In this document: one piece after another, positions 56,740 to 64,000 of the stretch
Position numbering within the stretch: position 1 is the stretch's first letter
Layout of the letters: each line of letters begins with the position of its first letter
Assembly: GCA_963828255.1 (NCBI GenBank)
Contig: CAWHDZ010000030.1
Location: 128,001-192,000 of the forward strand
Origin: an uncultured delta proteobacterium
GTDB taxonomy: Bacteria; Myxococcota; Myxococcia; Myxococcales; Anaeromyxobacteraceae
Direction of reading: 5' to 3'
DNA: 64,000 bases
Notes under the pieces: model-generated
What the model was told of the DNA's origin: nothing
The model's database searches: none
Seen by the model: the letters and a program-made list of their open reading frames with translations, nothing else
Position numbers and translations under genes: made by a program

Positions 56740-57894
56740 ATGCTGGAGATCCTCGAGACACCCGTGAAGCTGAGCCTGCCCCTCGGGCAGCACCCGCACT
56801 GCCTGCTGGCCCAGATCCCCGACCACCTGGTGCGCGGCGACCTGGGCTACGTGGTGCCCGGGCCGGAGGAGCAGTGGGCGCGGGTCCGGTCGGTGCTGGA
56901 CCTGGTGACCGAGGGGAACGGCGGCTTTCGCAAGCTCCACTTCCTGGTCTTCCCCGAGGGCTGCCTGCCGCTCTCCCACCTCGACGACATGCTGGGCGCC
57001 ATCGAGCGGCAGATCCAGGCCAGCACGGTGACCATGTTCGGCCTCGAGCACGTCCCGCTCGAGACCTTCCACGGGCTCCTGATGCGCTTCCGCGACGACA
57101 ACGCCCGGGCGCTCGCGCTGGTGGAGGAGGACCTGGAGTCGGGGAGCGACCCGGCCATGCCGGTGAACCTCTCCTGCGTGGTGGTCCGGGAGGACGACGG
57201 AAAGGTCCGGGTCTTCCTCCAGGCCAAGGGGCACCCCTTTCACGGGGAGGAATACCTGGACAAGAGCCACGACCTCTACCGGGGGCGGATCGTCCACCAC
57301 TTCCGCGGGACGTCGTCCTTCAACTTCATGGTCCTCATCTGCCTCGACTACCTGTACCGGGACCTCTTCTCCTCGAACATCCGGCGCATCGTGGACCACG
57401 CCAACCAGAACTTCTTCCGGACCCGCCAGGGCCTGGACGCACTCTTCGTCATCCAGGCCAACCCCAAGCCGGAGCACCGGGCCTACCGGGAGGTGCTCTC
57501 CGGCTTCTACGGGGAGTACCTGGAGGACACCCCGGGGGTGCGCGACACCGTGACCGTCTTCGGGAACTGCTCCGACGAGAGCCACATCGAGGGCGGCGAG
57601 GGGCACGGCGCCTACGGCGTGTCGTCGGCGGTGATCGGCCCCCGGCACAACCTCGTGAGCGTGGCGCTGTCCGAGTTCTCCACCGACGACTTCGGCGGAG
57701 CCCCGCTGTGCCGGCTGCGCTTCGGCACCGCCACGCGCCTCTACTACTTCAACCTCCCGCTCCACCACGAGCTCGACCCGCGGTCGTCCCGGCTGCCCCT
57801 CAAGGTGCACGGCATCTACTGCCCGACGCCGGAGGGAGGGTGGCGGAAGATCTCGGGCGACGAGATGGTGCAGGGGGTGGGCGCGGCCGGGTAG
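56740..57894 (+). CDS. Hypothetical protein with carbon-nitrogen hydrolase (nitrilase)-like motifs
   Basis: FLVFPE, QAKGHPF and VLICLD occur in the Glu-Lys-Cys order; strong coding bias. Confidence 0.65.
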   Translation: MLEILETPVKLSLPLGQHPHCLLAQIPDHLVRGDLGYVVPGPEEQWARVRSVLDLVTEGNGGFRKLHFLVFPEGCLPLSHLDDMLGAIERQIQASTVTMFGLEHVPLETFHGLLMRFRDDNARALALVEEDLESGSDPAMPVNLSCVVVREDDGKVRVFLQAKGHPFHGEEYLDKSHDLYRGRIVHHFRGTSSFNFMVLICLDYLYRDLFSSNIRRIVDHANQNFFRTRQGLDALFVIQANPKPEHRAYREVLSGFYGEYLEDTPGVRDTVTVFGNCSDESHIEGGEGHGAYGVSSAVIGPRHNLVSVALSEFSTDDFGGAPLCRLRFGTATRLYYFNLPLHHELDPRSSRLPLKVHGIYCPTPEGGWRKISGDEMVQGVGAAG

Positions 57895-57943: not shown

Positions 57944-59045
57944 GTGACCCGCGAGCCCTACATCCTGCGCCAGCGGTCGGAGCACGGCCGCAAGTCCGTC
58001 GCGGTCCTCCCGGTCCACTACCCGAAGGAGCTCCTCACCGCGCTCGACCTGCTCGCCGTCGAGGTCTGGGGACCGCCGGGCGCGCCGCGCGGGGACGACG
58101 CCGGTCGCGATCCAGACCTACGTCTGCGCGGTGGTGCGCAACGCCCTCGGGTTCCTGGCCTCGGGCGGCGCGGACATGGTGGACGCGGCGCTCTTCCCCC
58201 ACACCTGCGACTCGATCCAGCAGCTCGCCACGCTGGCCCCGGACTTCGGGGGCTGGAAGAAGCCTTCGATCACCTTTCTCCACCCCAAGGATCCCGGCCG
58301 CCCCAGCGCCCGTACCTTCGCGCTGGCCGAGCTTCACGCCCTGGCCGGGAAGCTCGAGGCCGTGGCGGGAAGGAAGCTCGAGCCCGACCGGCTCGCCGCC
58401 GCCATCCGGCTCCACCGCGAGATCGACGCCTGCCGCGCGGCACTGCTCGACGGGCGCGCCTCGTTGCCCCTCGACGACCGCGAGCTCTACGCGCTGCTGC
58501 GGCGCGGCGAGTGGCTCTGGCCCGAGGAGCACCTCTCCGAGCTCCGCGACGCCCGGGCGCGCCTCGGGACGGGGAAGCCGCAGGCGGGAGTCCCGGTGCT
58601 CGTGACCGGCTACGTGCCCGAGCCGGCGGCGTTGCTCGGGATCCTGAACGGCGCCGGCGCCTTCGTGGCCGCCGACGACTACGCCGCGGTGGGGCGCCGT
58701 CTGGTGCGCGAGGCCGATCTTCCCGTCGCCGACCCCTGGGCGGCGCTCCTCGACAGGTACCTCGCGGCGCCTCCCTGCCCGACCCGGTCGGCCGACCAGG
58801 GCGCCCGGATGCGCCACCTCGAGACCCTGCTCGACCGCAGCGGTTCACGCGGAGTGGTCATCCACGTGGTGAAGTTCTGCGAGCCCGAGCTCTTCGACGT
58901 CCCGGCCATCCGCCGCACCTTCGCGTCCCGCGGCGTCCCGGTGCTCCACCTGGAGGGCGAGCTGGAGCGGCAGCTCTCCGGTCAGGTGGAGACCCGCATC
59001 GAGGCGTTCGCCGAGATGATCTCCGGCCCGGGAGGTGCGGCGTGA
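57944..59045 (+). CDS. 2-hydroxyacyl-CoA dehydratase/BCR-family subunit, single frameshift near 58109
   Basis: HYPKELL...EVWG in one frame; IQTYVCAVVRN, FPHTCDSIQ, VKFCEPELFD, TRIEAFAE in the next. Confidence 0.85.
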
Positions 59046-60355
59046 TCCTGCGGCGCGCGCAGTACGAGCTGGCGCATCGCGCGGTGGGCCCCTTCCTGGC
59101 CGCGCTCGACGACTGGCAGCGGCGGCGCACGAAGCGACCGGCCCGGGAGAGCCCGTTCGCCCCCCCGCTCGAGTCGCTCCACGCCCTCAAGAGCTTGATG
59201 ATGAAGCACTACTTCGAGGGGCGGTACGCCGACGGCGCCGTTCCCGTGGCCTGGGTGACGAGCGGGTTCCCGGTGGAGTTCCTGCGGACCCTGGGATTCC
59301 ACACCGTCTACCCCGAGAACCACGCGGCCATCTGCGGGGTGGGCCGGCTCGTCCCGGCGCTCTCCGATGCGGTGGAGGCGGAAGGCTATTCGCGCGACCT
59401 GTGCAGCTACGTCCGCTCCGATCTCGGCTCGATCGCCACCGGCAAGTCGCCGGTGGGGCGGCTCCCACGCCCCGACCTGCTCGCCTGCTGCACGAACATC
59501 TGCCAGACGGTCCTCTACTGGTACCGGGACCTGGCCCGCCACTTCGGGGTTCCGCTCGTCCTCGTCGACACCCCGTTCGTCTACGGCGAGCCGTCCGCCC
59601 ACCAGACGCAGTACGTGGTCGACCAGCTCGAGGAGGGCATCGCCATCGCCGAGCGGGTGGCGCGTCGGCCGCTCGACCGGGAGAAGCTCTCCGAGACGGC
59701 GCGCCTCTCCCGCGAGGGGAGCGAGCTCTGGGGACAGTGCCTGGAGACCGCCCGGACCCGCCCCGCTCCCTGGACCGGCGTGGACGGATTCTTCCACCTG
59801 GGACCGGTCGTGGCGCTGCGCGGTTCCGAGGAGTGCAACGCCTACTACCGGGTTCTGCTCGACGAGCTGCGCGACCGGGTGGCGAAGGGAATCGGGGGGC
59901 TCAAGGGCGAGGAGAAGCACCGCCTCCTGTGGGACAACCTGCCCATCTGGTACGCGACCCGCGAGATCACGACGCTGCTCGGGAGCCAGGGCTTCAACTT
60001 CGTCTGCACGACCTACACGAACGCCTGGGCGGAGGCCTCGAGCGGCATCGACCCGGCCGATCCGGTTCGCTCGGCGGCCACCACCTACTCGCAGATCATG
60101 CTGAACCGCGATCTCCCCAACAAGCTCCGGCTGATCTCGCAGATGGCGCGGAAGTTCGAGGCCGACGGGGCGGTCCTCCACAGCGACCGCTCCTGCAAGC
60201 CCTACTCGATCGGGCAGATCGACCTGAAGGACAGGCTTTCGAGCGACCTGGGGATCAAGGCGCTGCTCCTCGAGGCCGACCACAACGACCCCCGCTCCTG
60301 GGCCAGCGAGCTCTCCCAGAACCGGCTCGGCGCCTTCATGGAGAGCTTCGGATGA
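59042..60355 (+). CDS. 2-hydroxyacyl-CoA dehydratase/BCR-family subunit
   Basis: YPENH, GYSRDLCSY, CTNIC, RSCKPYS, RLGAFME; GTGA overlap with the upstream gene. Confidence 0.9.
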   Translation: MILRRAQYELAHRAVGPFLAALDDWQRRRTKRPARESPFAPPLESLHALKSLMMKHYFEGRYADGAVPVAWVTSGFPVEFLRTLGFHTVYPENHAAICGVGRLVPALSDAVEAEGYSRDLCSYVRSDLGSIATGKSPVGRLPRPDLLACCTNICQTVLYWYRDLARHFGVPLVLVDTPFVYGEPSAHQTQYVVDQLEEGIAIAERVARRPLDREKLSETARLSREGSELWGQCLETARTRPAPWTGVDGFFHLGPVVALRGSEECNAYYRVLLDELRDRVAKGIGGLKGEEKHRLLWDNLPIWYATREITTLLGSQGFNFVCTTYTNAWAEASSGIDPADPVRSAATTYSQIMLNRDLPNKLRLISQMARKFEADGAVLHSDRSCKPYSIGQIDLKDRLSSDLGIKALLLEADHNDPRSWASELSQNRLGAFMESFG

Positions 60356-61119
60356 GCGGGGCCGCGGCAGTCGGCGTGGACGTCGGTTCGACCACCTGCA
60401 AGGTGGTCGCCATCGACGGCGCGGGAGCCATCGTCGCCCGGCGCGTCGAGTCGACCGATCCGCGGATCGAGCGGCAGGTGGAGCGGCTCCTGGGGGAGCT
60501 GCTCGGCGAGGCGGGGCGCGGGCTTCCGGTCGGCGCCACCGGGTACGGCCGCAAGCGGGTTCCCGGCGCCCGGGCCCTCACCGAGATCACCTGCCACGCG
60601 CGCGGCGCGTTCGCGCGGGCCGGCCGGGCGGCCGTGCTCGTGGACATGGGTGGCCAGGACACCAAGGTGATCCGCATCGGCGCCGCGGGGGACGTGGTGG
60701 ACTTCGCCATGAACGACAAGTGCGCCGCAGGCACGGGTCGGTTCCTCGAGGTGGTGCTGGGACGGCTTCACGTTCCGTTCGAGGGGCTCGCCGAGATGGT
60801 GGCCGCCGCGCCGCGCGCCGTCCCGGTCTCGAGCACGTGCACCGTCTTCGCCGAGAGCGAGGTCATCTCGCTCGTCGCCGCCGACGAGCCCGTCGAGGGG
60901 ATCGTGAAGGGGCTGCACGTCGCGCTGGCCTCCCGGGTGGCGTCGCTGGCCAGGGGTTCGCTCGGCGGTGAGGAAGTCCTCATGAGCGGTGGGGTGGCGC
61001 TGAACGGCGCCATGGTTGCGGCGCTGCGGGACGCCCTGGGCAGGCCCATACGGGTGCTGCCCGAGCCGCAGCTCACCGGGGCGCTGGGGGCTGCGCTGTC
61101 GGTGCTCCCTGGTCGGTGA
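60352..61119 (+). CDS. CoA-substrate-specific enzyme activase (HgdC-like ASKHA ATPase)
   Basis: GVDVGSTTCK, ATGYGR, EITCHARG, DMGGQDTK, MNDKCAAGTGRFLE, STCTVFAESE. Confidence 0.93.
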   Translation: MSGAAAVGVDVGSTTCKVVAIDGAGAIVARRVESTDPRIERQVERLLGELLGEAGRGLPVGATGYGRKRVPGARALTEITCHARGAFARAGRAAVLVDMGGQDTKVIRIGAAGDVVDFAMNDKCAAGTGRFLEVVLGRLHVPFEGLAEMVAAAPRAVPVSSTCTVFAESEVISLVAADEPVEGIVKGLHVALASRVASLARGSLGGEEVLMSGGVALNGAMVAALRDALGRPIRVLPEPQLTGALGAALSVLPGR

Positions 61120-61362
61120 CGCGGGCCGGGGCGGGGCCGCTGCGAACGCTCCGCATCATCTGGCATGCCAGGATTTGCGTGAAAATGTGTCAAGTTAAAT
61201 CAATAAAATCATACATGTAAGCGATTTCTCGAAATCTCTCATCACGCTTGCGCCGGTGCTTGACTGCCTACACGGACTTCTGTCCGTATGCGTCAATGTC
61301 ACATGAATATGTGTCGTTGGTTCATGGGACATTTTCAGTCAGCCCAAACCAGGAGCGTGCAA

Positions 61363-63273
61363 ATGAGAAAGACATCATGGTCCGTCGGGATATCGCTTGT
61401 GGTGAGCGTCATCGTCCTCGGCTGCGGCGGTTCAAGCGGTAGTCAAAGCTCCACCGCGCCAGCAAGCCTGGCGGGCATCGCCTCATCCGACTCCCCGGTC
61501 GCCTCGGTGTCCCTGAAGGATTCGGCGTCGCCTCGGCGCCACGTCGTGACGACCCCTGACACCAGCGGGAGCTTCTCCTTCGACGTGGCGGATTTCACCC
61601 CGCCGTTCGCCCTGAAGGCGAAGACGGCTTCCGGAGCCGAGTACGCCATCGCGGCGAAGAGCGGTGTCGCCAACGTCAACCCGATCACCACCGTTGCAGC
61701 CTACGCAGCCTACGAAGCCGATGATGACGATGATGACGACGATGCCGAGGAGTCCTGGTCGGGCGGCAGCGCCGGGTCATCCAAGGACATCGAGCGGGTG
61801 ATCAAGAGCCTCAGCACGGTGCTCCGGCCGCTCTTCGACCTCTACGGGATCCGGCGCATCGGGGAGGACGACGAGGGCTGGAGACTCCGTGCCCTGCTCC
61901 GCGACGTGAGCTTCCAGGTGAAGTCTGGCGTGGTCACCGTGACGAACAGGGCGACCGGCGGCATCATCTTCACCGGCAAGATCAGGGACCTCTCCTCGGG
62001 CACGTTCTACCCCGAGAACATGCCCGCTGGACCCGGCGGGGGCACGCCTTCGACCTGCACCGGGTTCACGTACAACCCCTGGGGCGCCTGCCAGTCGAAC
62101 AACACCCAGACCCGCACGGTGGCGTCCTCGTCCCCGAGCGGCTGCACGGGCGGGACGCCGGTCCTCACCCAGGCGTGCACCTACGTGCCGCCTCCGCCCG
62201 CTGCCTGCCAGTACACCTACACCAGCTGGGGCGCCTGCCAGTCGAACGGGACGCAGACCCGCACCGTGGTCACGTCCGGCCCCACCGGATGCACGGGTAC
62301 CCCGGTCCTCTCCCAGTCCTGCACCTACGTGCCTCCTCCGGTGACCTGCAGCTCCTTCACCTACTCGGCGTTCGGAGCCTGCCAGTCGAACAGTACGCAG
62401 ACGCGCACCGTGCTGACCTCGTCCCCGACGGGCTGCACGGGCGGGACGCCGGTCCTCACCCAGGCGTGCAACTACGTGCCGCCGGTGGTGACCTGCAGCT
62501 CCTTCACGTACTCGGCGTTCGGAGCCTGCCAGCCGAACAACACGCAGACGCGCACCGTGCTGACCTCGTCCCCGACGGGCTGCACGGGCGGGACGCCGGT
62601 CCTCTCCCAGTCCTGCACCTACGTGCCTCCTCCGGTGACCTGCAGCTCCTTCACCTACTCGGCGTTCGGAGCCTGCCAGTCGAACAGTACGCAGACGCGC
62701 ACCGTGCTGACCTCGTCCCCGACGGGCTGCACGGGCGGGACGCCGGTCCTCACCCAGGCGTGCAACTACGTGCCGCCGGTGGTGACCTGCAGCTCCTTCA
62801 CCTACTCGGCGTTCGGAGCCTGCCAGCCGAACAACACGCAGACGCGCACCGTGCTGACCTCGTCCCCGACGGGCTGCACGGGCGGGACGCCGGTCCTCAC
62901 CCAGGCGTGCAACTACGTGCCGCCGACCTGCACGTACACGTACTCGGCGTGGAGCACCTGCTCCTCCAGCGGGACGCAGACCCGCACCGTCGCGTCGTCC
63001 ACGCCGGCCGGCTGCGCGGGGACCCCGGTCCTGACGCAGACGTGCACGCCTCCGACGCAGTCGTGCAACACCTGCCACGGGGTCCCTCCCTCCACCGGGG
63101 CGCACTCTTTCCACGGGAACACGTGCGGCAATTGCCACTCCGGATACACCTCGACGAGCGCCAACGCGGCGACGCACATGAATGGCACGAAGGATGTGAA
63201 CGGGACCCGGATCACCGCCTGGGATGCGTCGACCAAGCAGTGCACGGGGTGCCACGGCTCGGCTACCTGGTAG
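61363..63273 (+). CDS. Surface lipoprotein with seven TSP1-like Cys repeats and a C-terminal triheme c domain
   Basis: AGGAG RBS; lipobox VLGC; ANVNPITT N-terminal domain; poly-Asp tract; seven repeats; CNTCH, CGNCH, CTGCH. Confidence 0.85.
   Translation: MRKTSWSVGISLVVSVIVLGCGGSSGSQSSTAPASLAGIASSDSPVASVSLKDSASPRRHVVTTPDTSGSFSFDVADFTPPFALKAKTASGAEYAIAAKSGVANVNPITTVAAYAAYEADDDDDDDDAEESWSGGSAGSSKDIERVIKSLSTVLRPLFDLYGIRRIGEDDEGWRLRALLRDVSFQVKSGVVTVTNRATGGIIFTGKIRDLSSGTFYPENMPAGPGGGTPSTCTGFTYNPWGACQSNNTQTRTVASSSPSGCTGGTPVLTQACTYVPPPPAACQYTYTSWGACQSNGTQTRTVVTSGPTGCTGTPVLSQSCTYVPPPVTCSSFTYSAFGACQSNSTQTRTVLTSSPTGCTGGTPVLTQACNYVPPVVTCSSFTYSAFGACQPNNTQTRTVLTSSPTGCTGGTPVLSQSCTYVPPPVTCSSFTYSAFGACQSNSTQTRTVLTSSPTGCTGGTPVLTQACNYVPPVVTCSSFTYSAFGACQPNNTQTRTVLTSSPTGCTGGTPVLTQACNYVPPTCTYTYSAWSTCSSSGTQTRTVASSTPAGCAGTPVLTQTCTPPTQSCNTCHGVPPSTGAHSFHGNTCGNCHSGYTSTSANAATHMNGTKDVNGTRITAWDASTKQCTGCHGSATW
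62056..63063 (+). repeat. Intragenic tandem array of about 147-bp (49-aa) units, seven copies
   Basis: Near-identical units start at 62347, 62494, 62641 and 62788 (147-bp period, alternating A/B variants); diverged units start at 62056, about 62206 and 62929. Confidence 0.95.
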
Positions 63274-63714: not shown

Positions 63715-64000
63715 CTAGGGGATGGTCGACGCCGCGTCGATGATCGTCTGCCGGCCGTTCTCGAACGTGGTCGGCACCCAGCCCTGGCCGTAGGCGTGGA
63801 TCCGGAGACCGAACTGCGTGGACTGCACGCCCGACTGGTGGCAGCTCATGCAGGAGGCCGCAGTCGCGCCCATGAGCACGTCGTCGAGCTGGTTGCCCCA
63901 CGGCGCGGCGCCCGGGTCGGTGATGAGGGCGACGCCCTTGGTGGCGTTCACCGTCTCCTGGACCCAGCCGTCGGAGTGGCAGGCCGCGCAGTTGTTGATG
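63715..64000 (-). CDS. C-terminal part of a multiheme c-type cytochrome (OmcA/MtrC-like), 5' end outside the window
   Basis: INNCAACHSDG...GATAASCMSCHQ...RIHAYGQG; two CxxCH motifs in the last 95 codons. Confidence 0.8.
   Translation of the reverse strand, partial: INNCAACHSDGWVQETVNATKGVALITDPGAAPWGNQLDDVLMGATAASCMSCHQSGVQSTQFGLRIHAYGQGWVPTTFENGRQTIIDAASTIP

Follow-up and report, generated by a model that had tools for sequence, protein, structure and literature searches.

A probable PgcA-type lipoprotein cytochrome with a spacer of seven four-cysteine modules and a putative triheme tip in an uncultured member of the Anaeromyxobacteraceae

Near the end of a 64,000-nucleotide stretch of a genome from an uncultured member of the Anaeromyxobacteraceae (GenBank assembly GCA_963828255.1, contig CAWHDZ010000030.1, positions 128,001 to 192,000; hereafter, the window), a single open frame of 636 amino acids occupies positions 61363 to 63273 of the forward strand, with an ATG start after AGGAG. 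We consider it probable, though well short of assured, that this gene encodes a PgcA-type lipoprotein cytochrome in which a jointed spacer of seven modules presents a triheme tip for extracellular electron transfer, a reading that draws on sequence comparison, structure prediction, and analogy with PgcA (GSU1761) of Geobacter sulfurreducens, the type member of the “microbial heme-tethered redox strings” (PMC10570954, PMC11520253, PMC5732950). What is known is the PgcA kind, with its defining N-terminal domain (N-domain); what appears to be new is a spacer of four-cysteine modules predicted to be folded and the clustering of the hemes at the C terminus.

An earlier note on this DNA had picked out a lipobox, seven repeats with four cysteines each, and three terminal CxxCH motifs, all of which we confirm. 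The signal peptide and lipobox (VLGC, 61363 to 61425) end in Cys21, the predicted lipid anchor, which recurs in at least 90% of 61 aligned proteins. The N-domain follows (amino acids 33 to 222, 61459 to 62028); the note had recognized it at about 200 residues, close to our 190 or so, but its run of seven Asp residues is one of eight (amino acids 120 to 127, 61720 to 61743), in a loop that varies between homologues. After Met220-Pro221 (62020 to 62025), the repeats lie at amino acids 232 to 272 (62056 to 62178), 282 to 320 (62206 to 62322), 329 to 369 (62347 to 62469), 378 to 418 (62494 to 62616), 427 to 467 (62641 to 62763), 476 to 516 (62788 to 62910), and 523 to 561 (62929 to 63045), each spanning 39 to 41 amino acids from its first cysteine to its last, with a period of 47 to 50. 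The head (63055 to 63270) has CxxCH motifs at amino acids 568, 588, and 627 and spare histidines at 581, 584, and 605; all of these features are on the forward strand. The 35 cysteines of the protein comprise 1 in the lipobox, 28 in the repeats, and 6 in the heme motifs. Neither three CxxCH motifs nor a single repeat motif arose in 20,000 shuffled versions of the protein. No Pfam or NCBIfam model scored above its cutoff over the whole protein, and matches of the gene or protein to Med7, ModE, and the P11 small RNA were rejected as noise.

The frame is open and its GC content at third codon positions is 0.85 to 0.96 in each of the gene's three parts. At the DNA level, the repeats form one array (period 147, 5.7 copies, 86% matches), within which identity is complete (100%) between repeats 3 and 5 and 94 to 100% among repeats 3 to 6, evidently a recent expansion; given this identity, the copy number of seven could be sensitive to assembly. 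The source genome is 4.3 Mb, with 71% GC, and is 99% complete and 6.6% contaminated. Parts of the gene are covered by contigs from runs on freshwater sediment and freshwater, the best of which may be its source; the one RNA run searched contained only short, diverged pieces, which are no evidence of its expression.

The kinship with PgcA is carried by the N-domain. Its phmmer search of the PDB returned two matches only, 9I0D (E 6e-20) and 9I0E, and the same entries headed the Foldseek results for the full-length model (E 3e-14 and 2e-11; TM 0.73 of the target); both bear the title “non-heme domain from PgcA.” On these grounds, this domain is the non-heme (secretion) domain of Geobacter PgcA, a membership missed by the note, which knew of no described protein with this architecture. 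PgcA is a secreted triheme lipoprotein cytochrome required for Fe(III) oxide reduction (PMC11520253, PMC10570954, PMC5732950), whose monoheme domains are joined by (PT)x linkers that serve as tethers and do not bind mineral (PMC11520253) and whose gene is controlled by a cGAMP-responsive GEMM-Ib riboswitch (PMC6456294). The protein in the window shares with it the lipobox, the homologous non-heme domain (about 32% identity), the Met/Pro at the end of that domain, a total of three heme motifs, and a heme-free spacer. It differs in that this spacer consists of seven four-cysteine modules predicted to be folded, whereas the (PT)x of PgcA is disordered, and in that its three hemes share a single CxxxxCH-type module at the C terminus, whereas PgcA has three separate monoheme domains. 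Of the features by which heme-tethered redox strings are recognized, it has the lipobox and the N-terminal non-heme domain; it lacks unstructured PT/PA linkers between hemes, OmcF-like helical monoheme domains, and an upstream GEMM-I element.

The repeats are marked by their cysteines, which are invariant over 40 aligned repeats and kept in 614 of 676 repeats counted; the second aromatic residue is Trp in three of the seven and Phe in four. In sequence, the nearest counterpart of this four-cysteine pattern is the C-domain of pleiotrophin/midkine (PF01091; PTN_MK_C), not Pfam TSP_1: repeat and C-domain both have four cysteines, a C-x-aromatic-x-aromatic-xx-W-xx-C opening, and a T-R-T strand. 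The protein scores 14.6 bits against PF01091, under the cutoff of 25.3, while 19 of 61 family members match it at E ≤0.01 (best, 2.6e-15) and some repeat-bearing relatives pass the cutoff (e.g., 43.8 bits summed across repeats). When a 40-repeat profile was run against the PDB, the pleiotrophin C-domain was the sole, weak match (E 0.66), and its structural match to the repeat has a Z score of 2.5. That C-domain is a three-stranded thrombospondin-type repeat (TSR) with two disulfides that binds glycans via a basic surface (PMC9363672), and from its pattern we infer disulfide pairing of C1 with C3 and C2 with C4. Unlike it, the repeats have no basic heparin-binding surface and form a tandem array in a bacterial lipoprotein.

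The note had likened the repeats to the TSP1 module, a likeness that survives as a predicted TSR-like fold (with weak Z scores) and fails at the level of the sequence family: Pfam TSP_1 matches neither this protein nor any of the 61 family members, and the cysteines number four, as in pleiotrophin and midkine. AlphaFold2 modeled repeats 6 and 7 with the head at a predicted local distance difference test (pLDDT) of 91 to 97 over the repeats and about 40 to 50 over the head, for a predicted TM score (pTM) of 0.47; in the full-length model (pTM 0.42), repeats 4, 5, and 7 are collapsed. A structure search of 48,161 chains gave 21 with Z of at least 2, and 18 of the 20 listed are TSR-bearing proteins, five of which we take to be such and the rest of which are so titled; repeat 7 has the best matches, and single modules superimpose with a root mean square deviation of about 3 Å over 41 to 49 residues. 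Foldseek returned nothing at E 0.001 for the repeat fragment (best, 2.7e-2), although TSR proteins filled almost all of its rows, and found properdin at E 1.4e-4 for the full-length model. The ESM Atlas language-model neighbors of the repeat include TSP1 at 0.76 to 0.80, all below the 0.9 level. The repeat is predicted to be an elongated, three-stranded, TSR-like module, as in the families of TSP1, properdin, F-spondin, MIC2, and TRAP (PF00090, PF19028, PF19030), from which it differs in having four cysteines rather than six, Y-xx-W/F without WxxWxxW, and a single Arg rather than an Arg ladder; common descent with the animal TSR is unproven. Because the modules are joined by Pro-rich hinges (6 to 9 residues) and the models, at these two pTM values, fix no overall shape, the rigid, disulfide-stabilized rod proposed in the note is not supported. 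Nor does the composition of the 330-residue stalk (7 Arg, no Lys, no acidic residue, three Trp, 34% Ser plus Thr, and no CxxC pairs) bear out the role in adhesion that the note had added.

The positions of the heme motifs support a heme-free stalk bearing a terminal triheme head that would need a partner, as had been proposed. Over 77 columns, the head shares 53% identity (BLASTP, E 3e-22) with the final three-heme unit of another protein of this genome, a CxxxxCH/CxxCH multiheme cytochrome, and it resembles the TIGR01904 cytochromes in being one CxxxxCH/CxxCH-type triheme module; unlike them, it is a single unit standing alone. His581, His584, and His605 are invariant in 39 of 39 sequences (a set chosen for this head type), so three bis-His hemes are predicted. 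The third motif is CxxCH here but Cx3CH (29) or Cx4CH (12) in all 41 homologous heads, and the best match of the head among PDB sequences has an E value of 0.15.

As its homologues indicate, the architecture is that of a widespread modular family in which heads and repeat numbers interchange freely. The search for same-architecture relatives that the note had suggested yielded 986 proteins at E 0.001 among 7,998 scored. Among the best 120, which were examined, 117 join the N-domain to 2 to 10 repeats (three lack the N-domain), and 113 combine N-domain, repeats, and heme motifs. After the last repeat, these 117 have one motif (48 proteins), two (18), three (47), or none (4, all broken or cut); heads of the present triheme type, found in 41 of the best 120, are interchanged with PgcA-like monoheme domains. 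Hemes lie before or between the repeats in 31 of the 120, where the repeats therefore occupy the place of PgcA's (PT)x. An alignment query recovered 40 genome loci (a single-protein query of contigs found nothing) from Nitrospirota, Anaeromyxobacteraceae/Myxococcota, and Geobacteraceae, with Anaeromyxobacter oryzae Red232 and A. terrae SG22 as cultured carriers. On a tree of 35 N-domains, from which rows with fewer than 140 profile positions are excluded, this protein groups with Anaeromyxobacteraceae genes; repeat-bearing and repeat-less genes are intermixed, and the linker type changes five times, with at least three changes forced by well-supported branches. The source genome holds no paralogue of the N-domain or the repeat.

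Beyond this family, the repeat seems to behave as a general surface spacer, in heme-free proteins as well. Its profile matches 1,823 clusters at E ≤0.001; among the best 150, 108 lack both N-domain and heme, 20 have heme only, and 22 have the N-domain. Many of the 56 heme-free proteins scanned (of the 108) carry Ig, PKD, LamG, cohesin, peptidoglycan-binding, protease, or glycosidase domains, and our impression is that many are surface proteins of the candidate phyla radiation or of archaea; TSP_1, TSP1_spondin, and TSP1_ADAMTS match none of the 56 at E 1e-5. We also observed these repeats in another cytochrome family, one with an N-terminal heme domain and without the PgcA domain (P0155, P0160, P0171, P0174, P0182, P0200, P0223, P0257), as well as a variant with an additional heme-free domain between the repeats and a triheme head (L005:1297-3441, P0057). 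Frameshifts are common in homologous genes, often within the array (L002, L007, L012, L037, L042, L050, L055, L058, L063), and may reflect either assembly error or real phase variation.

Regulation links part of the family to PgcA. In an Rfam scan that covered 26 of the 40 genome loci, a GEMM-I riboswitch lies upstream of all nine repeat-bearing Nitrospirota genes and all three Geobacteraceae controls, and not of the one repeat-less Nitrospirota gene scanned; the related genes in these counts are not independent. Two of the Nitrospirota genes so preceded (L031, L034) share the exact layout of the protein in the window. Eight of the nine Nitrospirota switches are 86 to 91% identical to a Geobacteraceae one, from which we infer the same ligand specificity as that of the pgcA switch; GEMM-I control is thus a feature that the Nitrospirota members share with PgcA. 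As a candidate promoter and operator in place of the riboswitch, the gene in the window is preceded by TTGAC ... TTCATGG (61260 to 61327, forward strand), within an AT-rich gap (45% GC). The element is common to some relatives: of 26 Anaeromyxobacter-type genes, 10 have TTCATGG upstream, where 0.03 would be expected per region, and in seven cases it comes after TTGAC. Sigma-70 and terminator scans gave nothing for this gene.

The genome encodes candidate partners for the head and for its maturation: an OmcA/MtrC decaheme cytochrome (300.6 bits versus a cutoff of 209.3), giant CxxxxCH multiheme cytochromes, a CcsB-like protein (143.7 bits, below its own cutoff), and 48 frames with at least three CxxCH motifs, some of them overlapping. 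The giant multiheme clusters (G000:C7:208488-244718 and C27:170977-188940) contain frames with as many as 49 CxxCH, are duplicated internally, and include overlapping frames, possibly frameshifts. At G000:C27:224773-229433, two MtrC-like genes lie in tandem, the upstream one split over two frames and the intact one with a collagen-like stretch after its signal.

Disulfide formation was at first spoken against by the lack of DsbB in all 41 genomes searched, this one included, and of VKOR in all 14 searched genomes of this genus, its own among them (VKOR occurs in 9 of 11 other genomes of the same family). These absences favor the alternative that the 28 cysteines of the repeats are reduced or metal binding, which we nevertheless regard as highly improbable. 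The objection is answered by MauE, which is encoded here with a CGC motif (E 3.4e-27; G000:C13:1184-1564), is present in 11 of 13 other genomes of the genus (12 of 14 with this one), and can replace DsbB experimentally (bioRxiv 10.64898/2026.03.05.709764); DsbA-like proteins with CPYC and CPFC motifs are also present, and the near-constancy of the four cysteines and the lack of CxxC pairs in the stalk argue in the same direction. A genus with MauE but neither VKOR nor DsbB would offer a natural setting in which to test the MauE disulfide pathway, this 28-cysteine protein being its substrate.

In the reading that we prefer, the protein would be exported by Sec and lipidated at Cys21, its hemes would be attached with bis-His ligation (the CcsB-like protein being available), its 14 disulfides would be formed by the DsbA-like proteins with MauE, and the PgcA domain would deliver it to the surface. 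The tip would receive its electrons from MtrC/OmcA-type or giant multiheme cytochromes whose genes lie elsewhere in the genome, swing between cell-surface cytochromes and an external acceptor (for example, Fe(III)/Mn(IV) oxide), and discharge to the mineral via tethered diffusion, the mechanism measured for PgcA. The stalk would carry no electrons, setting instead the reach (a residue count puts a rough upper bound of 30 to 45 nm on the stretched form, versus 18 nm measured for PgcA heme domains I to III) and resisting proteases. Extracellular electron transfer, one of the functions suggested by the note, is the likely one and would require a partner.

Several observations weigh against this proposal, and the main difficulty for a surface arm is the kept cut-site motif. 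Recombinant PgcA is cleaved between Met252 and Pro253, and a truncated soluble form occurs (PMC11520253). This site aligns with Met220-Pro221, where Pro is found in 61 of 61 proteins and Met in 51, and N-[MLIV]-P is kept at the domain end in 104 of the 117 homologues. With all hemes at the tip, a cut there as in PgcA would leave a stalk that tethers nothing, and the 42-kDa piece of repeats and head could instead diffuse as a released shuttle, its Ser/Thr-rich modules binding mineral, matrix, or a partner cell and so holding it near the cell. TSR domains are binding modules in animals, and this, with the Ser-plus-Thr content of the stalk, counts for such a shuttle. We judge it unlikely: cleavage of PgcA was seen in heterologous expression, and a motif that closes a domain may be structural; the stalk is without the basic surface that serves pleiotrophin in glycan binding (PMC9363672); and the variation from 2 to 10 repeats and their placement between many unrelated domains are as expected of spacers.

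Also unfavorable to the surface arm is that, in the alignment, the positions of PgcA Asp208 and Asp212 are taken here by Arg176 and Arg180, these Asp residues being retained in Geobacteraceae and in three Nitrospirota genes; the literature searched gave no reason for the D208A/D212A mutation in 9I0D. Their replacement in the secretion domain is compatible with a lipoprotein that faces the periplasm, where its disulfides would form, and whose tip ferries electrons between inner- and outer-membrane cytochromes, and PgcA is able to support periplasmic electron transfer (10.1101/2022.08.12.503762). Such a periplasmic arm is quite improbable, since the periplasmic role of PgcA came from deletion of its lipobox, which is intact here, and the other proteins with the repeat look surface exposed.

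Genomic context speaks in the same unfavorable sense. No riboswitch lies upstream of this gene, in contrast to pgcA, or at any of 13 Anaeromyxobacter-type loci (nor at any of 15 shorter loci of relatives); none of five neighbors compared from the window has a homologue in 53 other loci, so context names no partner; and the gene, which stands alone and is evidently monocistronic, is missing from about half of close relatives and is therefore accessory. An accessory, monocistronic gene for only three hemes on the end of a costly stalk would suit a protein that is displayed at a distance to sense redox state, store electrons, or scavenge oxidants and is no respiratory carrier, and PgcA aids peroxide tolerance (10.1101/2022.08.12.503762). 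We hold this to be more improbable still than the periplasmic arm, there being no signaling domain in the protein and no neighboring regulator, while heads are swapped with PgcA-like monoheme domains and the Nitrospirota members have pgcA-like riboswitch control. The remaining unfavorable points concern scores and searches: the head reaches 22.1 bits against TIGR01904 (E 9.5e-5), below the cutoff of 27, and is modeled too poorly for a confident fold, so that we make no structural assignment for it; the structural matches of the repeat to TSR are low (Z 2.2 to 3.8), below the caution level; and no MtrB/PioB porin was found in the genome by a search whose control likewise gave no match.

The note's claim that this exact architecture is undescribed was borne out: neither the literature searched, which covered few subscription papers, nor passages of PMC12977616, PMC11492766, and 10.1101/2023.11.21.568195 gave a description of it. 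We offer tentatively, as a possibility on which we would not rely, that these proteins are widespread cytochrome “arms” of Myxococcota and Nitrospirota that have borrowed a prokaryotic thrombospondin-fold spacer (about 1,800 clusters, heme-free surface proteins among them) as a tunable molecular ruler, in which repeat number would set the reach of the heme tip (up to tens of nanometers) without a heme chain and the module would be a prokaryotic relative of the animal TSR/pleiotrophin domain. PgcA provides the precedent that electrons can cross nanometers via tethered diffusion with no chain of hemes. Because 2 to 10 modules and heads of one to three hemes vary reach and stiffness apart from the redox part, the distance limit of tethered diffusion could be tested directly. 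With this family, electron transfer of the PgcA type would reach into soil and sediment Anaeromyxobacteraceae and Nitrospirota, and the prokaryotic TSR-like module, so far uncatalogued, would bear on the origin of a fold usually taken as eukaryotic.

Upstream of the gene, a 2-hydroxyacyl-CoA dehydratase pair with a BadF/BcrA-type activator occupies positions 57945 to 61119, the first gene apparently frameshifted near 58100; an operon with these genes was ruled out by the 243-base AT-rich gap and the lack of conservation. Before them (56740 to 57894) lies a gene for a 384-amino-acid protein that matches no Pfam family above noise and whose motifs look as if they might be carbon-nitrogen-hydrolase-like. 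Downstream, on the reverse strand and convergent with the cytochrome gene, the C-terminal half of an OmcA/MtrC-type cytochrome (five CxxCH) runs from 63718 to 64000 and on to G000:C30:192695. No N-terminal half was seen, and its upstream end has a 514-base match, at 93%, to a different contig. Beyond it lie an integrase gene and hydrolase genes, which suggest the edge of an island.

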